A program made the translations under genes and the position numbers. A model generated the notes under the pieces. The model was given only the letters and a program-made list of their open reading frames with translations. It made no database searches and was not told the origin of the DNA. Shown here in pieces: positions 444 through 13,941 of a stretch of DNA of 64,000 nucleotides (positions are counted from its first letter, which is position 1; each line of letters begins with the position of its first letter). Origin of the DNA: Dictyostelium discoideum (taxonomy: Eukaryota); the NCBI GenBank assembly GCA_000004695.1, contig CM000150.2:2752001-2816000 (forward strand). Reading direction: 5' to 3'.

Positions 444-1027
444 TTATTTAGTTTTTTGTTTCTTTTTTGAAGATTCACCAGATTCTTCTTTTGGAGTTGT
501 TGGTGCAGTTGCAGTTGTAGAATTTGTTGATTCTTTTGATTCTTTTGATTCTTTTGATGTTGTAGTGGTTGTAGTTGAAGATGTTGATACAGCTAAAGCA
601 GCAGCATTGGTTGCAGCAGCAGCTTCATCAATTTCTTGTGGTGGTATATTTTCAGCGAAATATTCAGGTTTTCTAATGTTAATACCATATTCTCTTAATG
701 CTAATGAAAGATCATCTGTTGTTAATACTAATGCTTTATCTTTTCTAGTTTTCTCTCTTGATGTACCTTGTAATCTAATCTTACAAAATTGTAAACTATC
801 ACTTGTTACATCTGATATAAACTTTTGTGTTGCTAATGATATTAATCTTTTTATTCTTTGATCTGTACATGAAAATCCTGTTTTATTTAAATAATATGTT
901 ACAACTTCATCTGGTATCTAAAATAAATAAATAAATAAATAAATAAAAAATAAAAATTATTAATAATTTTTATTTTTCCTTTTTATTTCTTTGAATTTAT
1001 AAATAAAAAAAAAAATACAAAATACAA

Positions 1028-1063
<36 letters not shown>

Positions 1064-1176
1064 TGCATTGTTTGTATAAATATAAAGTGTGTTATTTTTG
1101 AAGGGATACATACTGTTGGGACATAGTCCTCTAAAGAGTTTATAAATTCTTCATAGTCGATTGGTTCATTTTCCAT
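444..1176 (-). CDS. taf10: TFIID subunit TAF10 (histone-fold TAF). Two exons: 1114..1176 and 444..917, with a GTATGT...TTTTAG intron.
   Basis: The minus-strand translation MENEPIDYEEFINSLEDYVPT|IPDEVVTYYLNKTGFSCTDQRIKRLISLATQKFISDVTSDSLQFCKIRLQG...LTTDDLSLALREYGINIRKPEYF aligns residue-for-residue with the conserved core of human TAF10 ([23 protein letters not shown]...LTMEDLTPALSEYGINVKKPHYF). The intron phase is consistent. The listed + ORF 439..861 is an antisense artefact. Confidence 0.8.
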
Positions 1177-1300
1177 TGTCGAATCGATAAATTTATCTAA
1201 TAAAAAAAAAAAAATCCCTCTGTTTTTATTTTTTTTTTTTTTTAAAATAAAAAAATATTAAAATAAATGAAAAAAAAAAAAAAAAATTAAAAAAATAAAA

Positions 1301-1341
<41 letters not shown>

Positions 1342-1470
1342 AATTACAAAAATATTAAAAAAAAAAAAAAAATACATTTTTCAAGTTCAAAACTTTTTTA
1401 ATAATAATAAATATAATTATAATTTTATGTAATTAATATTTATTACATATTTTATAATTATTTTTATAAA

Positions 1471-4444
1471 ATGAAAATAAATTTAAATTTATTTTTCATT
1501 GTTGTTTTATTACTTTTATTAACAACAAATTCAAATTTTATAAATGGTGAAAAGGATAACGATGATAATGAAAATAATGATAATAACAATAATAATAATA
1601 ATAACAATAATAATAATAACAATAACGAAAATACATTTGTAATTGCAAATGCAGGGGATTTAGACCCAGAAACATTAGAAAAAATTAAAAATTCATTATT
1701 TCAAATAAAACATCACCGTATTATTAGAGAAGAACCTGAGGAGGAGGAAGATGATCATCATGATCATCATGATAGTAATGATGATAATGAAGAAATAAAA
1801 ACAAATAAAAAAAGAAAAAAAGTCAATAATTTAGAACTAAGAGATCAATTTATAATTCAAGGTAGTAATATAGTTAAAGAGAAACCACCAACATCATCAA
1901 CTAAAAGGAGTGATTTAGATGATAATCATAATAATAACAATCATCATCATCTTTACCATGGTTATTATGGTGAAAATGAAGAAGATCATTCATTTTTATT
2001 TGATTTTACAAATTCAAATGTTAGACCAGATAGAGAGTTACCAGGTAGAGATTTATTAATTGAAGCACAAAGATATAGGGGATATTTATTGTATGATAAG
2101 TTAACATCACCAACTCATCCATTCAGTAATTCAATTATGATTCATGGTTTTGATTTATCAACTGATAGAGATTTATTTGAGTTTAAAGGTCAATCGAAAT
2201 TAACTCCACTTGATTCAACAAAAGCTTATCAATTATTATTAGATTCTGCAAATCAAGGTAACCATCGTGCAATGTATTTATTAGGTGTTATGAATGAAGT
2301 AAGTAAATAATAAAATAAATTAATAAATAATGATAATTTAATTATGTTAACATTTTATTATTAAATTTTAATTTTAGATTGGTGAAAATAATAATAATGG
2401 TAATATGGATTTTGTGTTGGCAGAAGAATGGTATTTGAAATCAGCAGAGTATGGTAATTCAGATGCACAAAGATCATTAGGATTTTTATATGCAACTGGA
2501 AAATTGGGATATATTGACGAGGCGAAAGCAATTTTATATTATTCATTCGCTGCAAGGTCTGGTAATATTGTGGCACAGTTGACGATGGCTTATAGGTATT
2601 TACATGGTTATGGTGTTGAAAAGAGTTGTAAGAAGTCATCAATACTCTATGACAAGGTGGCAGCAAGAGTTGTGTCAGATTATGAAATGAGGGGATTCGG
2701 TTACCAAGTGAATTCTCAAAGATTTTCAGAAGAGAGAAAGAGAACACACGGTTATCAAGAGGATAGTGATATAGTGGACTATTTGAAATACTCGTCAGAT
2801 GATCCTGTGACAATGGGTAGACTATATTTGGAGGGCAATTTAGTGCAACAGGACTTCCAATTGGCGTTCGACTACTTTAAGCGTGCTTCGTCAATGGGTC
2901 TAGCTGGCGGCTACTCTGGATTGGGTTTTATGTATAATATGGGCTATGGAGTTATACAATCAAATAAAACAGCGTTCAGCTATTATGTCAAGGCTTCGGA
3001 TTTGGGTGATAAAGATGCAAAGTCGAATCTTGCTGAACTTTATTTCTTTGGATATGGTGTTAATCAAAACACACAAAAAGCAATAGATATTTGGATGGAG
3101 AATTCTCAATATACTGTAGAAACTCATAATGCACATGCAAGTTTTAAAAAAGGTGGTAGTGGCAAGGAGACCATTGTTCAAACTCTTTATCATGCACCAT
3201 CGAATGCTCATTTGGGTAGGGTGTTTGCTTATCATGGTACCAATGGTCAAGGTCAAGGTATTGATCGTAGTAAAGCATTACATTACTTTTCACATGCAAT
3301 CTCTGCTGGTGACATTGGCTCATTCTATCATTTCTCAAAGATTCATTTAGATAAAGATCCATCCTCATGTCCATACGTTGTTCAATATATGAAAAAGATC
3401 GCTGAAAAAGGTGCATGGGCAATCATATTAACAAAGGCTCAAGATCTTTATGAAGAGGATGATACTGATCGTGCATTATTATTAAGTGAAAAAGCAGCTG
3501 AAATGGGTATTGAAATGGCTCAATTTAATTCTGCTTGGATGTATGATAAACGTTTAGGTTTATCATCATATTATAAATCATTAGAGGAACGAGAAGAAGA
3601 AGAACAAGAACAAAAACAAGAAGATAATAGTGATAAAGGTAGAATTGAAGATGAAATTGTAGATTTAATAATTGGTGAGGATAATACAAATAATAAAGAG
3701 GAAGAAGAAGAAGACCAACCAATTAATAAATTATTTAATAAAGACTTTTGGGATCAACAAGCATTTAGATATTATGATTATTCAGCGGAACAATTAAATC
3801 CATTAAGTAGAATAAAGATTGGTGATTTCTTTTATTATGGTATTGGAGTTGAAAAAAGTTTTGAATTAGCAGCAGAGAGTTATAAACAAGCAGCATCAGT
3901 CAGTCAACCAATGGCATTGTTTAATTTGGGTTATCTCTATCAATATGGTGAAGGTGTACCTCAAGATTTCTTTTTAGCAAAGAGATATTACGACCTATCA
4001 TTAACCTATCAACCAAAAGGTTATATACCTGTATATCTATCATTGATTAGTTTATTCTTTCACTTTATTTATACTTTTATTTGTTCATTATTTGATCCAT
4101 CAATTAAAATTTCCTCAACGTCACAAATTGATCCAAAAATAATTTCTCAACAAACTACAACATTAAATAGCGATAAAACAACCACCACCACCACAACAGC
4201 AGGATTTGATAATGATTTTGGTGTAGGTGGTATATTAAATAATTTTTCATTTGATAATGAACTCATTCATCAATTAGAGTCATATACAATGATATTATTT
4301 GCAATTATAATTGGTTTCCTTGTAATAAGAAGACAAAGAATCATTTTAAATCAACAAAGACATCCAATTCGTCAACAACAACCACAACAACCACAACAAC
4401 CACAACAACAAGAACAACAACAACAACAACAACAACAACAATAA
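1471..4444 (+). CDS. SEL1L/Hrd3-like Sel1-repeat ERAD membrane protein, paralogue A. Exons 1471..2298 and 2378..4444.
   Basis: It has a signal peptide, an Asn/Asp-rich low-complexity stretch and multiple Sel1 repeats (AEEWYLKSAEYGNSDAQRSLGFLYATG..., GLGFMYNMGYGV..., LFNLGYLYQYGEGVPQD). A C-terminal TM helix (LFAIIIGFLVIRRQ) is followed by a Q/P-rich tail. The intron is GTAAGT (2299)...TTTTAG (2377), phase 0, and joins ORFs 1471..2310 and 2405..4444. Confidence 0.8.
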
Positions 4445-4783
4445 ATACTTTGTATTATATAGTAAAAATATAAAGTATAAAATAACAATAATAATATAGT
4501 AATAATTAAATAAAAAAAAGATTAAATAATAAATTTTGTATTATAAAATAAAGATTCAAAACTCTTTTTTTTATTTTTTTTTTATTTTTTTATCTTTTAT
4601 TTTTTTTATTTGTCCGAATAAAATCATACTGTTTTCCAGCCGCTCTGGAATAAATGATGATCATTATTGGTCACCACTATTGGAATAATTGTTATTTTTT
4701 TTGATTAGTTTTTTCTGTTTCAATAATTGTTATTTTTTTTAAAATAGTGAACATATGTAACAAATATTATTAAATTTTTTTTT

Positions 4784-4820
<37 letters not shown>

Positions 4821-4888
4821 TGATTTTATTTAATTTAATTTTTTTATTTTAAAATGGTGAATCATCACCCTCCATAATTTTTCAATTT

Positions 4889-4929
<41 letters not shown>

Positions 4930-4996
4930 CAAAAATAATTTTTATAAATTACATATATATATAATAATAGAGAAAGAAAGAAAACACAAGTGAAGA

Positions 4997-5093
4997 ATGA
5001 AATTAAAAAATTTATTATTAATTTTATTATTCATATGTTGTATTGTAATTCAAATTCAATCTCAAAATACTAAAAATAATGAAAATGACGAGC

Positions 5094-5126
<33 letters not shown>

Positions 5127-5281
5127 TTAATAATATAGAGAATAATGATAATAATAATAATAATAATAAAGATAATATAGTTGATAAACTTTTAGATCAA
5201 AATACACTTGATACATTATTAAAATTAGTGGAAAATGATTTAGTAAAAGATAAAGAAAATGATATCACAAATAATGATATT

Positions 5282-5343
<62 letters not shown>

Positions 5344-7485
5344 TAATAATAATGATAATATTAACAAAAATAAAAATAAAAATAAAAATAAAAATAAAAA
5401 TAAAATAAAAGATGACATCGAAACATATATAGACGGTGAAGAAGATGAAGAAACAAAGAAGAATAATAATAATAAATTAAAAAATGAAAATGAAAATGAA
5501 AATAGTAATATTAATTTTAATCAATTTATGACATTTCAACAAATTGAACTCGATCCAAATGGTAACATTATAATTAATATGGTACCAAATCAACCACAAA
5601 AACAACTTATAATTAATGATGATAATAGCAATAATCTACAACAACAAGAACAACAACAACAACAACAACAACAACAAGAACAACAAGAACAAGAACAACA
5701 ACAAGAACAACAACAAGAACAACAACAACAACAAATATTAAGACAAAAACAATTTCAATTAGAACAACAAATTCTAAAACAACAAATTCTAAAACAATTT
5801 GTAACAACATTTAATCAAGATGATTTTTTATTTGGAAATGATATAGAGACTACATTTGATAAGAAAACTAAATTACCAATAGCTGATTCAGAATTACCAG
5901 GTAGAGATTTAGTAATTATGGCACAAAAACATAGAGGTTATCTATTGTATGATCAAAAATCTGCTGTTAAAACACATAGATATAGTAATTCAATCATGAT
6001 TTATAATTTCGATCAATCTCCAAATCGTGATATTTTCGAATTTGTTGGTGAAACACCAATTACAACTTTAAATCCAACAAAAGCTTATCAATTATTAATT
6101 GATGCTGCAAATCAAGGTAATCATCGTGCAATGAATTTATTAGGTTCAATGAATGAAGTAAGTAAATAAAATAATAAAATAAAGTAAAATGAAATATAAA
6201 AAATAGCAAATAAATGTTAACATTTTATTTAATATTTAAATTTTAGATTGGTGAAATTAATAATGGTAAAATTAATTTTACATTAGCAGAAGAATGGTAT
6301 TTGAAATCAGCAGAGTATGGTAATTCAGATGCACAAAGATCATTAGGATTTTTATATGCAACTGGAAAGTTGGGATATATTGACGAGGCGAAAGCAATTT
6401 TATATTATTCATTCGCTGCAAGATCTGGTAATATTGTGGCACAGTTAATTATGGCTTATAGGTATTTACATGGTTATGGTGTTGAAAAGAGTTGTAAGAA
6501 ATCATCAATACTCTATGGTAGAGTCAATGAAAAGGTTATCTCTGATTATGAGAGAAGAGGATTCGGTTACAATATTCATAGTCAAAGGTTATCAGAAGAG
6601 TATGAAAAGAAATCAACAGGTTATGCAAGTGAAGAGAATGATATATTGGAATTCTTTCGTTACTCTGCTGAAATGGGTGATGTGGCTTCGTTGATTACAA
6701 TGGCAAGATTATCATTAGAGGGTAGTTTAATGAATCAAGATTTCAGATTGGCAATTGACTATTTTAAACAAGCGATTGATGAAGATGAGCTCGACCAAAC
6801 TACAGCTGAGGGATACGCAGGGTTGGGTTTTATGTATGAGAAAGGTTATGGAGTGGAGCAAGATAATAAAACCGCTGTTGAATATTATACAAAGGCTGTG
6901 AATAATGGTGATAGGGAATCAAGATGGAGGTTAGCTCAACATTTTCTATTTGGTAGTGGTGGTGTTAAACAAGATACTCAAAAAGCATTGGAACTATTTG
7001 AAAGTATTTCCATTGAAATGATAGTTCAGGACGAGGAAGGAAATCAAGTGAAAATGGCACCCGTTAATGAAGCATTATGCTGGTTGGGTAAAATCTATTC
7101 CTATGGTTTGGGTGGTGTCACTATTAATCGTGTAAAAGCTTCCCATTATTTATCTCGTGCTGTTGCTGGTGGTGATGTTGAAGCACATTATCATTTCGCT
7201 ACAATTCATTTGGAGAATGATGAGTCTACTTGTCCTGTGGTTGTAACTCATTTGAAAATGGTCGCTGAAAAAGGTCCTTGGTCAATGATACTCTCAAATG
7301 CTCAAGATCTTTATGATGAAGATGATACAAGTCGTGCATTATTATTAAGTGAAAAAGCAGCTGAAATGGGTATTGAAGCAGCCCAATTCAATGCAGCTTG
7401 GATGTACGACAAACGTTATGGTTTATCAGAATATTATAAATCTAATGATGAAGAAATTGAAGAAACAACCAATGGAATAGATAAC

Positions 7486-7535
<50 letters not shown>

Positions 7536-8268
7536 TAAAAATTCAATTTATATTAATAATTTATTTAATGATGAATTTTTTATTCAACAAGCTTTAAGAT
7601 TATTTTATTACTCTGCAGAACAACAAAATGCATTATCTCATATTAAAATTGGTGATTATTTTTATTATGGAGTTGGTGTTGAAAAGAATTTAGAATCATC
7701 AGCTGAAAGTTATCAAATCGCAGCAAATTTATATCATCCACAAGGTTTATTCAATTTAGGTTATCTTTATCAATGGGGTCAAGGTGTACCACAAGATTTA
7801 TATTTAGCAAAACGTTATTATGATATGTCATTAACAATTAAACCTGAACATAATAAACAAGGCTATGATGGTTACTATGGTTACATTCCAGTTTATTTAA
7901 GTTTAACTGGTTTATTATTTCATTTTATTTACCTTTATTTTTTATCTTTCTTTGATTCATCAGTTCAAATTTCAAATTCATTCAATAATAATAATATGAT
8001 TCATCCAATTGTTGAATCACCACCACCATCAACATCAACAACCGCTTCTTCGTCATCAAATAATGATGGTACCTCAAGTTTTTCTTCAATTGGTTCAACT
8101 TTTAATGAAATTAGATATGCATTGGATAATGAAGTAGTTCAAACTTTAGAAACTTATCTAATGGTTATATTTGCAATTGTTATTGGTTATTTAGTTGTAA
8201 GAAGACAAGGTATACTTTTAAGACAAAATAATAATAGAAGACCACTTAATCAACAACCACAACAATAA
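4997..8268 (+). CDS. SEL1L/Hrd3-like Sel1-repeat protein, paralogue B, a tandem duplicate of the upstream gene. Exons 4997..6157 and 6247..8268.
   Basis: It has the same architecture and the same intron position (GTAAGT at 6158, TTTTAG ending 6246). The exon junction motif ...NQGNHRAMxLLGxMNE|IGE... is conserved between the two genes. Sel1 repeats, a C-terminal TM helix and a Q-rich tail are present. The N-terminal low-complexity (N/Q-rich) region has diverged. Confidence 0.8.
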
Positions 8269-8642
8269 TAATAGTAATAATAATTTTTTTTTTTATTTTT
8301 ATAAAAAATAAATAAAAAACTGTTTAAAATAATAATCTAATGTTTCGATTTCTAATTTTCTTTCGATCTCAAAATGATAATCTGTTTGGATATTTTTTTA
8401 TTTTATTTATTTATTTTCAAATCAAACATTTCACATATTTAGGTTGGTGAAAAATTAAAAATTAAATCAAATGGAAAATAGTAGTGTAAAAAATAATAAA
8501 AAATCTAATAGATTAAGTCGTATTATTTTTAATTTTTAAATTAAATGAAAAAAATAAAGTGAAAAAAAAAAAATCAATATGTTATAATTGGTTTAAAATA
8601 AAAATTTATTAATTAAAAAAATTAAGCATTGTTCATTAGAGA

Positions 8643-8996
8643 TCAAATAAAATTTAGTAATTGATCTCTTTCTAAATCTAATATTTGATTATCATTATCA
8701 TTATCATTATTGATATCATTATCATTATTATTTTCATTTTCATTTCCTTCATTTTGATTTTGATTTAGATTTTGATTATTAAAATAAAAACCTGGAATAC
8801 TATGTAATATAGATAAACCTATAATGTTAACTTCTTGTTCATTTTCATCTGTTTTGTCTGTTTCTTCTGTTTCTTCATCATCATATTGATTTATTGAAGT
8901 GTTATGCAAATAACTTATGAAAAATACAGAAAGTTTTAATCTTTCCAAAGTACTTGAAGAGTTCCAACCTAAATTGATTAAAAACCAAAAACACAT
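8643..8996 (-). CDS. Hypothetical acidic, Asn-rich small protein. It may be the last exon of a larger minus-strand gene that extends to about 9400.
   Basis: This is a 117-aa ORF only. Upstream on the same strand are further stop-bounded coding-like pieces (YTGEPLKILTLKKKPKNEFLSNDDIL; EFGDTGVKFEMGANLINGKTMWAAGPFKSPSDFKNYRKKLDKIPLKEG). I could not place any of them in a protein family. Confidence 0.25.
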   Translation of the reverse strand: MCFWFLINLGWNSSSTLERLKLSVFFISYLHNTSINQYDDEETEETDKTDENEQEVNIIGLSILHSIPGFYFNNQNLNQNQNEGNENENNNDNDINNDNDNDNQILDLERDQLLNFI

Positions 8997-10053
8997 TTTG
9001 AATAATTATTCTGTATCTTTTAATCCAATTATTTCATAAAATATCATCATTACTCAAAAATTCATTTTTAGGTTTCTTTTTTAAAGTTAAAATTTTTAAA
9101 GGCTCTCCTGTATACCCTAAATTTAAATGATTAGAAATTAATTTTTATTATTTTTTTTTTTTCCTGTTTAAAAAAAGTGATTTATTTAATTTAGCTTTAT
9201 TTCCAATAAACCTTTCAACCTTCTTTTAAAGGTATTTTATCTAATTTCTTCCTATAATTTTTAAAATCTGATGGTGATTTAAAAGGTCCTGCAGCCCACA
9301 TTGTTTTCCCATTTATTAAATTAGCACCCATTTCAAATTTTACACCAGTGTCACCAAACTCCCCCCTTTCTTCTCATAAATATAATTCCACCTTTTTTTT
9401 TTTTTTTTTTTTATAAAAAAATACTTTTTTATAATTTTAATAAAAACAAAGAGAATAAATCAATTCAAAAAAAATAATGGTAAAAAATCAAAACTAAAAA
9501 AAGACAAAAGAAGCACCTGTAGAAAAACAAAGAGCAAAATAATGTAATGATATTGTATTTTTGATTTTTTTTTTTTTTTTTTGGAAACCATTTTTATTTT
9601 TGGTGGTATAAAATTAATTTTTTTTTTCCCACTTTTTTCATTTTAGCCCGCCTGATTTAATATGTGAAATGATTTTTTTGAAAAAAATAAAAAAATGTGA
9701 ACAATACTATGAAATAAAAGAATATTTTTCAAAAAAAAAAGCTTTAGAATTTTAAAAAGTTCAAAATGTTGTTGTCATATGATGTTTACTTATTTTCGGT
9801 TGTTTTTTCTATTTTTAATTTCGATTTCTTTTTTTTTTTTTTAATTTATAATATTTGCAAAAAAAAAAAAAAAAATGATTAAATTTGAAAAATACCACAC
9901 TATTGTATTAGTTAGTGTAATTCTTTTTTTTTTTTATTTTTAATTTTTTAAAAATTTGTTGGGTTTCAGATATTTTCATACCTCAAGATCTCGAAAAAAA
10001 TGCGATCAAAAAAAAAAAAAATAAAAATAATAATAAAAATTTGATTAAATTTT

Positions 10054-10299
10054 AAAATCCACAACTACCAATCAAATTTTTTTTTTTTTTTTTTTTTAGA
10101 TACGAAAGATTTTAGTGATTTTTTTATATATATTTAACTGCTTTATAGACAATTCCCTAACGAGATACTTTGAATATTATTTTATTTTAATTTAATTGTT
10201 TTTTTTTTTTTTTTTCTTTTTCTATAAATTGATCACTTTTTTTTTTTATTCAAATCATTAAATTATAATTCTCAGAACAAATATTTATTAAAAAAAAAA
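10054..10299 (+). promoter_or_regulatory. Conserved promoter block of the duplicated small-membrane-protein genes. It contains a CCAAT box and the TATA-like motif TCTATAAATTGATC.
   Basis: The motif aaaatccacaactaCCAATcaaatttt...gaaagattttagtgatttttttatata...aactgct...gCCAATgag...tctataaattgatc...atcattaaattataatt recurs at 11440-11640 (partial) and 12105-12360. Confidence 0.45.
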
Positions 10300-11015
10300 A
10301 TGGTAGTTCAATTAACACTTGTAGGAGTTGCTGCTGCAGTAGGTATTGCTGCTGGTGTAGTTACTATTGGAACAACATTAGTAGACAAGATCAAAGGTTT
10401 CCTTCCAAATAATGAGGCTGATAGGAAAGAGGTTAAATACTTATCATTCAAAGATGATCAACCAACAAATGGTTTTAGATTGTAAGACATTAATATATTT
10501 TTTTTTAATAATTTTTTAAATTTTATTAATAAATTTTTTTTTTTTTTAATTTTGAATTAGGATTCTTGTAAATGAAAGTACTGGATGGAATAAAGCTGTT
10601 CGTATCTACACAAATCCAGGTGGTTCTGATTACCAAGAGGTAAAAGCTGGTGATTCAACTGGTACAGTTTGTAAAGGTAATATGCATCTTAAGTATGATA
10701 CTAAAAGAGTTAATTTCCCAACAGATAAAGATTACATTACTTTGAATCTTATGAAACCAGGAGCATTTGGTATTTATTCAACAGTAGACGAAATTAGAAT
10801 TTACAAAGACAAGTTTGCTGATTATGATGGTACTACCTTTGTTGTATATTGGCAAAATGATACATCTGGAGTAAGTTAATTTTTATTTTTATAATTTTGA
10901 CAATTTAAAAAAAAAAAAAAAAAAATAATATAAATTTTTAATTTTAACCAACCATTTTTATTTAATAGTATTTCAATAATATAAACAATTGGGTGAGTCC
11001 AGCTGATATGTAAAA
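10300..11015 (+). CDS. Small single-pass membrane-anchored protein of unknown family, about 178 aa, copy 1. Exons 10300..10481, 10561..10870 and 10971..11015.
   Basis: Exon 1 encodes a hydrophobic N-terminal helix (MVVQLTLVGVAAAVGIAAGVVTIGTTLV) and ends in phase 2 at GTAAGA. Exon 2 (ILVNESTGWNKAVRIYTNPGG...VVYWQNDTSG) ends at GTAAGT. The 15-codon exon 3 reads YFNNINNWVSPADM*. The paralogue at 12361 has the same exon structure with amino-acid substitutions and intact frames, which supports real coding exons. Confidence 0.6.
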
Positions 11016-11540
11016 ATACACATCACTCACATACCAATCATTTTATAAAAATTTTATAAGTTTGGTAAATTAATTCAATTAAAAGAAATTTATATTCGAA
11101 ATATTTTAATTTTTTATTTTTTTTTATAATATTGAGTAAATATTTTTAAAATATCAAATAAAACTTTCAAAACAAATATTATTTTTTAATTTTTAAAATT
11201 ATTTTTAAAAAAAGCTTTTTTTTTTTTTTTTTTTAAATGTTTTAAATAAAAAGAAATCAAAAAAAATAAAAACCATTGCCAAAAAAATCGATCAAATAAA
11301 AAAAAATCTTTTTTTTTATTTTTTTTTATTTCCGACACACAAAAAAAAAAAAAAAAGATGTTTTTTATTTTAATTAAAATCACAAAACTGATCAAATTTT
11401 ATTTTATATAATTTTTTTTTTATTTTTTTTTTTGGAAATGAAAGATTTTAGTAATTTTTTTATACGTTTAACTATTTTAAAGATAATCCCTCAAATTAAA
11501 GTTTTTGTAAGTTGCCAATGAGTTACTTTAATATTATTAT

Positions 11541-11573
<33 letters not shown>

Positions 11574-11640
11574 CATTTTATTTTATATATTCTTTTTTTT
11601 TTTTTTATTTTTTTTTTTTTAAAATGATTAAATTATAATT

Positions 11641-11770
11641 TTCAAAGCAAATATTTATTATAGAATGGTAGTTCAGTTGTAGGAGTTGCAGCAGTCATAG
11701 GTATTGCTGCTGGTGTAATTAGTATTGGAACAACATTAGTAGACAAGATCAAAGGCTTCCTTCCAAATAA
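11641..11770 (+). pseudogene. Truncated, disrupted copy of exon 1 of the small-membrane-protein gene (ATGGTAGTTCAGTTGTAG...).
   Basis: It aligns to 10300-10420, but a 6-bp deletion creates an in-frame TAG at codon 6. No exon 2 or 3 follows. The cognate promoter block lies upstream at 11440-11530. Confidence 0.5.
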
Positions 11771-12254
11771 TAATATGATTTTCTTTTTTTTTTATTTTTT
11801 TTTTTTTTTTGAAAAATCATAAATATTTTTTGAAAAAAATTTTTAACAAATTAATAAATAATTATAATTTAATCAAAATGGCTTTTTTTTTTTTTTTTCT
11901 TGTTTTTTTATTTTTTTTATTTATATTCTTTCATTGAAATCCAAAAAAAAAAAAATAAAAAACATTTGCTTTTCATTGAGATAATGATCAAAATAAAAAA
12001 AAAATTGTTTTTTTTTATAACACACAAAAAAAAAAAAAAAGAATTAAAAATAAAAAAAAATCAATTTAAATAAACCAACAGGATGTTTTTTTTTTTTTAT
12101 TTTTAAAATCTACAACCACCAATCAAATTTTTTTTTTTGGAAATAAAAGATTTTGGTGATTTTTTTATATAATTAACTGCTATAAAGTTAATCCTCAGAA
12201 ATTAAAAGTTTTTGTAATTTGCCAATGAGATAATTTTAATTTTAATTAAATTAT

Positions 12255-12288
<34 letters not shown>

Positions 12289-12360
12289 CTATAAATTGAT
12301 CTTTTTTTTTTTTTTCAAATCATTAAATTATAATTTTCAAAACAAATATTTATTAAAAAA

Positions 12361-13067
12361 ATGGTAGTTCAATTAACAGTTGTAGGAGTTGCCGCAGCCA
12401 TAGGTATTGCTGCTGGTGTAGTTAGTATTGGAACAACATTAGTAGACAAGATCAAAGGTTTCCTTCCAAATAATGAGGCTGATAGAAAAGAAGTTAAATA
12501 TTTATCATTCAAAGATGGTCAACCAACAAATGGTTTTAGACTGTAAGTTATCATTATTATTTTTTAATGGTTTTACAATTTTATTAATTATTTTTTATTT
12601 TTTATTTTAATTAGAATTCTTGTAAATGAAAAAACTGGTTGGAATAAAGCTGTTCGTATCTACACAAATCCAGGTGGTGCTGATTACCAAGAGGTAAAAG
12701 CTGGTGATTCAACTGGTACAGTTTGTAAAGGTAATATGCATCTTAAGTATGATACTAAAAGAGTTAATTTCCCAACAAATAAGGAATACATTACTTTGAA
12801 TCTTATGAAACCAGGTGCATTGGGTATTTACTCAACAGTAGACGAAATTAGAATTTACAAAGACAAATTTGCTGACTATAATGGTACTACCTTTGTTGTA
12901 TATTGGCAAAATGATACATCTGGAGTAAGTTAATTTTTAATTTTATCATATTTAATAATTATAAAAAAAAAAAAAAAAAAAACAATTGAATTTTTAATTT
13001 TAACAAATCTTTTTTAATAGTATTTCAATGATATCAAGAATTGGGTAAGTCCAGCTGATATGTAAAT
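12361..13067 (+). CDS. Small single-pass membrane-anchored protein, copy 2. Exons 12361..12542, 12615..12924 and 13023..13067.
   Basis: It is about 94% identical in protein to copy 1. The intron positions are conserved and exon 3 reads YFNDIKNWVSPADM*. Confidence 0.6.
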
Positions 13068-13316
13068 AATATCACAAACATTCCAATCATTTTATAAATT
13101 TTTTAAAAGATTGGTAAATCAATTCAATTAAATAAAATTTAAATTTTTTATTTTAATCTTTTTTTTTTATTTTTTATTAAAACATTAAGTAAATATTTCA
13201 AAAAATATCTTTTGAGAAATTAATTTATTTTAACATTTTTAAAAATAATTTTTATATAAACCCAAAATGTTTATTTTGATTATTTTAAAATAAATTAATA
13301 AACTAAATTCAAAAGG

Positions 13317-13358
<42 letters not shown>

Positions 13359-13941
13359 TTGAATGTTTTAATCAATAAATAAAATAAAAAAAATAAAAAA
13401 CATTGTTAACAAAATCTTTTTGAATTGTTTTTCATTGGAGTAGCGGTCAAATAATAAAAAAAAAAATTTTTATAATTTTTTATTTTTTTTATTTTAAACA
13501 CATAAAAAAAAAAAAAAAAAAAAAAAATTAAAAACAAATAAAAAAAAAAAAAAATTTGATCGGTTATTAAAGAGTAGTTTGTTATATGATATAATAAAAA
13601 AAATTAAAATTGAATTAAAATTAAAACCATTATAATTATCAAGTAATATTTTAATTTTTTTTAATTTTTTTTTTTTATGATTCTATCAAATCAAATTTGT
13701 TTTATTAATTTGATCACTATTTTATTTAATATACCAATAAAAATCTATTTTTGACAACAACAATGTTTTTAAATTTTTAAAACTTAAAATTTTTTTTTTT
13801 AATTTGTTAAATAATATTTATTATTTTTTGAGTTAGTTTTTTTTTTTTTTTTTTTTTTATTATTGTTTATATTTATTTTTTTTAATGATAATAAATATAA
13901 ATATTTAATTCGTAAAATATAAATAAAAAAATAAAAAAAAA

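Follow-up and report, generated by a model that had tools for sequence, protein, structure and literature searches.

Introduction

The closest described relatives of the two genes considered here, DDB_G0269436 and DDB_G0270518 of Dictyostelium discoideum AX4 (gene 1 and gene 2 in the following), are the three genes listed in dictyBase as uduA1-3 ('unknown protein UduA'; DDB_G0268332, DDB_G0267726 and DDB_G0267728). Both sets lie in tandem arrays on chromosome 1, encode proteins of similar size (174 aa for UduA) and have no assigned function. Genes 1 and 2 were studied in a stretch of 64,000 nt of chromosome 1 (contig CM000150.2, positions 2,752,001 to 2,816,000), which is called the window and to which coordinates refer unless another source is named; between them lies a fragment of a third copy. 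UduA1-3 belong to the same family (cluster E-value 3e-41, ~45% identity) and have the core motifs FR.ILVNE..GWNKA.R.Y, KAGDSTG, KP...GIW and DGKT.V.YW..D.S.YF in common with genes 1 and 2. They differ in an only weakly hydrophobic N-terminus (Kyte-Doolittle mean 1.4, with charged residues), which probably is no membrane anchor, and in their opposite, vegetative or early expression, compared with late expression of gene 2. According to a secondary statement, the name 'udu' refers to regulation linked to the mitogen-activated protein kinase phosphatase DupA (bioRxiv 10.64898/2026.09.10.750649); uduA genes decrease in M. marinum infection (bioRxiv 10.64898/2026.09.10.750649).

The closest paralogues are DDB_G0290885 and DDB_G0290887 (63-66% identity, 180 aa), a tandem pair on another D. 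discoideum chromosome, which resemble genes 1 and 2 in their hydrophobic N-terminus and the invariant DKIKGFLP but contain more introns. Mass spectrometry over the life cycle detected the proteins of DDB_G0290885 and DDB_G0267728 (PMC12821622). The DDB_G0290885/7 pair differs from gene 2 in that its protein occurs from growth until culmination and has disappeared in fruiting bodies. DDB_G0290885 is induced at 6 h of Legionella infection (log2 3.5; PMC6902447), whereas gene 2 is a late-development gene and not in that list. As life-cycle and infection data differ among members, the expression programmes within the family are diverse.

More distant comparisons concern architecture. Synaptotagmin-like, N-terminally anchored C2 proteins offer a functional analogy only: little or no N-terminal sequence lies outside the cytoplasm, and a single transmembrane segment is followed by a beta-sandwich of ~130 residues; here, in contrast, there is no Pfam C2 match, no Ca2+-binding loops were identified, and the protein has a single domain and no linker. 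A beta-sandwich architecture is also seen in the DUF2436 domain of PrtH from P. gingivalis (9isp) and in HGSNAT, where it forms the luminal N-terminal domain (8jkv); organisms, contexts and compartments are unrelated, and the resemblance is one of architecture, not of demonstrated homology.

The explanation that we favour, and regard as probable, is a short tandem array formed by unequal recombination in the D. discoideum lineage from one dictyostelid-specific beta-sandwich gene, whose copies met asymmetric fates and whose product would be tethered to the membrane.

Gene models and coding constraint

The two genes have the following structure.

10300..11013, + strand: gene 1 (DDB_G0269436); exons 10300-10481, 10561-10870 and 10969-11013; TAA stop at 11011-11013; 178 aa
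12361..13065, + strand: gene 2 (DDB_G0270518); exons 12361-12542, 12615-12924 and 13021-13065; stop at 13063-13065; 178 aa

Splicing yields an open reading frame (ORF) of 537 nt, coding for 178 aa, from each gene. All four introns begin with GTAAG and end with AG (lengths of 79 and 98 nt in gene 1), and intron 1 is in phase 2 and intron 2 in phase 0 in both genes. The two proteins are identical at 166 of 178 residues, and the coding sequences differ at 29 of 534 nt, corresponding to 15 synonymous and 12 non-synonymous codon differences. A reading of the DNA letters made beforehand (the original prediction) had proposed two three-exon genes with identical intron positions and phases, coding for proteins of about 178 aa and about 94% identity, and these models are correct. 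Its claim of real, constrained coding was borne out as well: the ratio of non-synonymous to synonymous substitution rates (dN/dS, omega) was 0.21 between the copies and 0.06-0.09 in comparison with orthologues at a synonymous divergence (dS) of ~0.7, the ORFs are intact and no frame-breaking differences separate the copies. Judged by these ratios, both genes are real and under coding constraint.

The novelty attributed to the genes did not hold, as both are already annotated in RefSeq and dictyBase as hypothetical proteins. The product of gene 1 matches XP_645965.1 exactly and that of gene 2 XP_645966.1, both named 'hypothetical protein', and the predicted proteins of the window, which has a base composition of ~20% GC, are exact matches to D. 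discoideum AX4 chromosome 1. A tblastn search of the window revealed no additional gene copies, and Rfam and tRNA scans of the region gave nothing beyond one chance-level match.

Dating the local duplication

D. citrinum and D. firmibasis (L001 and L005, respectively) carry one copy each between the same neighbours, namely one or more upstream genes of ~1000 aa and a downstream gene of 396-436 aa followed by zpr1; in D. firmibasis an additional FNIP gene lies in between. Two wild D. discoideum strains (L003 and L004) contain gene 1, gene 2 and, between them, the same dead fragment as AX4. Eight coding sequences from AX4, the wild strains and the other species were extracted by projection of exon boundaries, and all eight were intact ORFs of 178 aa. 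The paralogues differed by a dS of 0.15-0.23 and AX4 differed from the wild strains by 0.08-0.10, whereas the divergence from the outgroup species was 0.65-0.81. The locus thus shows what is expected of young tandem duplicates, namely that sister species have one copy only at the corresponding locus and that the paralogue dS is below the orthologue dS. Because of the single syntenic copy, the order of the dS values and the fragment common to the strains, the array can be placed within the D. discoideum lineage, at a time before the sampled strains diverged. The description of the genes as young is consequently right for the local duplication, but not for the family, which comprises ~17 small dictyostelid clusters.

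Asymmetric expression and sequence change

Expression values were taken from supplementary file 2 of Kin et al. 2018 (PMC6198379), which covers purified cell types in three replicates (two for vegetative cells). Gene 2 reached 88.6, 28.8 and 116.4 transcripts per million (TPM) in cup cells, 77.7, 87.1 and 195 in stalk cells and 24, 237.6 and 252.8 in spores, compared with 1.38 and 1.37 in vegetative cells; gene 1 remained at 0-0.25 TPM in each of the four cell types (PMC6198379). A loss of gene 1 reads by multi-mapping is unlikely because the coding sequences differ at 5.4% of positions. In independent vegetative RNA sequencing data, gene 2 was low but detected, and it was raised in a dnmA knock-out (PMC12405889). 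Gene 2 is therefore the expressed copy and is switched on late in development, and gene 1 has an intact ORF without detectable transcription in the four cell types of that one data set. The supplements of the multicellularity-genes and SpaA papers contained no entries for either gene, and a literature search by gene ID returned a single main-text mention.

The differences between the AX4 copies were polarised with D. citrinum and D. firmibasis as outgroups. Nine non-synonymous and four synonymous changes were assigned to the gene 1 branch and one and three, respectively, to the gene 2 branch, so that nine of the ten polarisable amino-acid changes lie on gene 1. Between strains, gene 1 had omega values of 0.17-0.27, compared with 0-0.03 for gene 2. 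Accordingly, gene 2 is the copy closer to the ancestral sequence, which it keeps under strong purifying selection, and the protein of gene 1 evolves several-fold faster.

Gene 1 might also have acquired a new function instead of decaying, with expression under conditions outside this sampling such as the macrocyst cycle, a particular prey bacterium or stress. Such a role would agree with the unbroken ORF of gene 1 in AX4 and in at least four wild strains, with between-strain omega values well under 1, with the intact TATA-like and invariant downstream elements of its upstream region and with the infection response of DDB_G0290885 and the uduA genes described above. It fits less well with the near-zero TPM values in vegetative, cup, stalk and spore cells and with the absence of gene 1 from the listed Legionella-regulated genes, and the excess of amino-acid changes on gene 1 is explained by relaxation too. 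We consider neofunctionalisation a possible but rather doubtful account.

Decay of gene 1 remains our preferred reading, and two points speak against it: the silence was seen in one data set with four cell types, so that, with omega below 1, expression elsewhere is possible, and the branch counts are small (13 versus 4 changes). The array consists of one working gene, one silent gene under relaxed constraint and one stump, and it looks as if it were decaying rather than expanding. The suggestion that the family is possibly still expanding is contradicted by the stump, by the silent gene 1 and by the concentration of amino-acid changes on it.

Upstream regions of the three copies

The region upstream of each copy contains a related block.

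10050..10299, + strand: upstream block of gene 1; TATA-like TCTATAAATTGATC at 10221-10234 and invariant AAATCATTAAATTATAATT at 10252-10270; lacks the 26-bp proximal-CCAAT block
11410..11664, + strand: upstream block of the middle copy; proximal GCCAATGAG block retained (11492-11522); TATA-like motif degenerate
12101..12360, + strand: upstream block of gene 2; distal ACCAATCAAA at 12119; 34-bp proximal-CCAAT block at 12196-12229; TCTATAAATTGATC at 12288-12301; invariant element at 12317-12335

A threefold promoter block had been predicted, with a CCAAT box and TCTATAAATTGATC common to the copies. The threefold repetition, including a third, partial copy, is real, but its proposed composition has to be corrected. 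The exact TCTATAAATTGATC occurs at two sites only (10221 and 12288), the middle copy carrying the degenerate form TTTATATATTCTT. The distal ACCAATCAAA is found in copies 1 and 3 (10068 and 12119) and the proximal GCCAATGAG in copies 2 and 3 (11515 and 12222); there is hence no CCAAT box common to all three copies. Likewise, the blocks cannot all be said to drive genes, the middle one included, as activity is shown for one promoter of the three only.

Copy 1 lost its proximal box by a deletion of 26 bp, with a junction near 10148-10168. The missing block (...AAAGTTTTTGTAA.TTGCCAATGAG) is present in the stump and in gene 2, and part of it is found in D. citrinum (TTTTTGTAAGATGACAATGTG). Gene 1 has kept its TATA-like element and its invariant AAATCATTAAATTATAATT intact. 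From this comparison we infer that the 26-bp deletion may have silenced gene 1.

Islands of non-AT sequence in the promoters are few and CA-rich (ACAACCACCAAT), located at 12105-12125 and 10054-10075. Their counterpart in D. citrinum is a GGTGGGTG / CATACCACAAG pair (L001, ~7730-7760). We take these islands to resemble the G-box or CA-rich elements of post-aggregative Dictyostelium promoters.

The middle copy and the repeat units

The remains of the middle copy and the ends of the three units were located as follows.

11665..11771, + strand: pseudo-exon 1; ATG at 11665, 7-bp deletion after codon 3, TAG at 11680-11682; homology ends at 11771, corresponding to codon 38
11014..11360, + strand: 3' flank of unit 1; homologous to 13066-13289 (~73-79%); end tract GACACACA(n) at 11334-11347
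11772..12100, + strand: tail of the middle unit; 11853-12074 weakly like the 3' flank of unit 3 (67% to 13289-13547); low-complexity DNA
13066..13545, + strand: 3' flank of unit 3; end tract AACACATA(n) at 13497-13510; D. citrinum synteny resumes at ~13498

The pseudo-exon starts with ATG GTA GTT CAG TTG TAG, and its lesion reads ATGGTAGTT-------CAGTTGTAG in alignment. The expected decay with a TAG at codon 6 was thus found, although the deletion amounts to 7 bp with a frameshift and not to 6 bp. By this lesion, the middle copy is to be regarded as a dead fragment, consisting of the upstream block and the first 107 nt of exon 1. A gene model of strain ACTFIT (protein P0014, 218 aa) joins the 11438-11720 ORF, which comprises the middle promoter and pseudo-exon, to gene 2 at 12361-13065; this chimeric model is probably a gene-predictor artefact.

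The unit 10050-11237 aligns to 12101-13289 with 83.5% identity over 1232 columns, a similarity that stands well above chance in alignment, even for DNA of 19% GC. Between these two units, identity was ~95% in coding sequence, 78-85% in introns and 73-75% in flanks. The third, partial copy (11422-11771) is 83% identical to 12127-12474 and 74% identical to 10075-10413. A tract ACACA(C/T)A(n) closes every unit (11334, 12019 and 13497), the tail of the middle unit ending with AACACACA(n) at 12019-12032. The weak likeness of this tail to the 3' flank of unit 3 suggests, and we hold this loosely, that the middle element may have been a full third copy whose interior was later lost; against this stands that the matches on which a full third copy rests are weak and lie in low-complexity DNA.

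The history of the locus may then be pictured as beginning with a single ancestral gene, which belonged to a family of small beta-sandwich proteins specific to dictyostelids. Unequal recombination after the split from D. citrinum and D. firmibasis would have created the tandem array, probably with three copies at first, the middle one being reduced later to its promoter and 107 nt of exon 1. Gene 1 would have lost the 26-bp promoter block, presumably followed by silence and faster protein change, and gene 2 would have kept the ancestral sequence together with expression in late development. Its product could act as a binding module, the anchor holding the beta-sandwich at the membrane with the body probably in the cytosol.

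Hydrophobic N-terminus, predicted domain and topology

Residues 2-28 (VVQLTLVGVAAAVGIAAGVVTIGTTLV) are uncharged, and a mean Kyte-Doolittle value of 2.32-2.35 over 19 residues was calculated for this segment, compared with at most 0.55 for the rest of the protein; the value of 2.3 supports the predicted N-terminal hydrophobic stretch. The proteins thus have one N-terminal hydrophobic segment of bilayer-spanning length, as is characteristic of signal-anchor sequences. It is rich in Gly, Ala and Val and 93% identical between species at dS ~0.7, being conserved like the body, and is followed by the invariant DKIKGFLP. With its 27 residues, its start at residue 2 and the lack of a charged n-region, it resembles an uncleaved anchor rather than a signal peptide. 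The spacing G15-x3-G19-x4-G24 (small-xxx-small) suggests that helices of this kind may pack against each other.

The body was modelled by AlphaFold as a beta-sandwich with a predicted local distance difference test score (pLDDT) of ~85-95. According to this model, the anchor would tether a domain of ~130 residues with 8-9 beta-strands to the membrane, giving a single-pass protein. The label of a membrane-anchored family applies to part of the family only: 11 of 24 diverse members have neither a hydrophobic N-terminus nor a signal sequence, and four are weakly hydrophobic. Since anchorless paralogues have the same domain and the proteins contain one Cys and no conserved N-glycosylation site (N-X-S/T), an orientation with the body in the cytosol (N-out/C-in) is the most likely one, and the body would act there as a binding module tethered to the membrane.

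Several observations weigh against this topology. The charges flanking the hydrophobic segment are nearly neutral, so that sequence cannot decide the orientation; the anchorless members could partly be truncated gene models; dictyBase gives DDB_G0290885 a 'putative signal sequence', which would give the body an extracellular or luminal position; and most of the closest folds are sandwiches of the sugar-binding or adhesin kind that lie outside the cell or in a lumen. The product might accordingly be a secreted or cell-surface protein whose hydrophobic stretch is either cleaved as a signal peptide or serves as a type II anchor, its beta-sandwich binding carbohydrate or matrix in the stalk tube, spore coat or slime sheath of the fruiting body. 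The dictyBase annotation, made on a 66%-identical paralogue, favours such a location, as does the induction of gene 2 in every terminal fruiting-body cell type. On the other hand, the long hydrophobic run from residue 2 shows no charged n-region and no obvious cleavage site, its conservation at the level of the body is unusual for a signal peptide, and neither the presence of the domain in members devoid of any signal sequence nor the single Cys and the lack of a conserved N-X-S/T site point to export. Secretion is thus considered unlikely, though a serious competitor, and we retain the cytosolic, tethered orientation.

The statement that no known family can be assigned proved correct: Pfam, PDB-sequence profile and fold searches give none. 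Pfam scans of both proteins and of the 24 diverse members detected no family at threshold. The sole Pfam signal was F5_F8_type_C (PF00754) at residues 46-126, with 15.8 and 17.3 bits (E-values of 0.016 and 0.0054) for the two proteins at a cut-off of 28.2 bits. One could therefore ask whether the body represents a diverged form of discoidin (F5/8 type C) or another galactose-binding-like lectin domain, kin to the Dictyostelium discoidins or to bacterial PPC domains, two bacterial PPC-repeat proteins having matched at 1.8e-5 and 8e-4 in the exhaustive profile search described below. The F5_F8_type_C scores are, however, far under the gathering cut-off and occur in just the closest four of the 24 members, the discoidin-type jelly-roll fold was not found, and the bacterial matches are best read as spurious sums over short repeated motifs. 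Kinship to these lectins seems very improbable to us. The best match of the family profile among PDB sequences (E-value 0.04) was a stretch of glutamate receptor 2 that matched by chance.

Membership in the PPC domain family (PF04151) was rejected, as the matches of P0035 and P0040 are summed weak repeat matches and no PPC structure appeared among the fold matches.

The UduA-like family

A word-index search returned close Dictyostelium relatives only. An exhaustive hidden Markov model search of the subfamily profile against 1.84 billion representatives yielded 20 matches with E-values of at most 0.001, including 17 small proteins with lengths of 146-230 aa. The source species of 14 of the 17 are D. 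discoideum, D. purpureum, D. citrinum, D. firmibasis, D. dimigraforme, Polysphondylium violaceum and Tieghemostelium lacteum, and the other three are EukProt entries. The cluster of DDB_G0267726/8 (P0022) was found at 3.2e-41 and 16 more small dictyostelid clusters at 5e-37 to 6e-4. A second word-index search with the family alignment gave fewer matches than the exhaustive search and added nothing. With significant full-length homology and core motifs common in the alignment, genes 1 and 2 belong to a dictyostelid UduA-like family for which no Pfam model exists. AX4 has at least eight members: genes 1 and 2, the DDB_G0290885/7 pair, DDB_G0279525 and the trio DDB_G0268332/267726/267728. As far as these matches reach, the family appears to be dictyostelid-specific and much older than the local duplication.

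The remaining three matches are long bacterial repeat proteins, whose scores sum weak matches to short motifs (RIYT.G..D.Y and YSNDDGSAY); they were discounted as homologues.

One may speculate further that the UduA-like proteins form a dictyostelid-specific family with an undescribed variant of the beta-sandwich, either soluble or held by a conserved glycine-zipper-like anchor, and that they serve in responses to infection or stress and during terminal differentiation; the tethered subfamily would then work as an oligomeric module in the membrane and have a new ligand specificity. So broad a proposal is put forward very tentatively, and we would not expect it to hold as a whole.

The value of these results lies mostly in annotation. 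Two 'hypothetical' AX4 genes are tied to a dictyostelid family without a Pfam model, which includes uduA1-3 and the Legionella-induced DDB_G0290885, and a confident structural model of the domain is provided. The asymmetric fate after duplication is documented by a conserved expressed copy, a silent, faster copy with a defined promoter lesion and a stump, in a locus whose structure differs between strains. It is a possible small test case of subfunctionalisation or pseudogenisation driven by promoter loss in Dictyostelium. Taken by itself, the duplication is an ordinary tandem event that concerns an orphan gene, in a model genome with good annotation, and it opens no long-standing question.

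Strain variation and neighbouring genes

According to the gene models of strain ACTFIZ (D. cf. discoideum), one protein (263 aa) joins an additional, decayed copy to an intact one, and another is a copy with an altered C-terminus (201 aa; P0018/P0020). Copy number and decay state of the array would accordingly vary within the species complex.

In the wild strains, one or two peroxiredoxin genes of the BCP/PrxQ type (154 aa; Pfam AhpC-TSA, E-value 3.7e-41) are located between gene 1 and the pseudo-exon (3890-4545 in L003; 1990-2718 and 3843-4517 in L004). No such gene is present at the equivalent AX4 position (~11232), which amounts to a presence/absence and copy-number polymorphism inside the array.

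Upstream of gene 1, the segments 8361-9151 and 9215-9331 have no counterpart in L003, which in turn carries ~590 bp missing from AX4, with a short inverted match. The first segment includes a minus-strand ORF at 8643-8996 (117 aa), and the minus-strand ORFs at 8643-9331 matched no Pfam family. dictyBase lists DDB_G0269434 (0 TPM everywhere) between a Sel1-like gene and DDB_G0269436, and it could lie in this part.

The large upstream genes (~604-4611 and ~4790-8284) are tandem paralogues with ~72% nucleotide identity, one of them Sel1-like, and measure 941 and 1060 aa in D. citrinum. As these neighbours are tandem paralogues themselves, the neighbourhood is apparently prone to tandem duplication.

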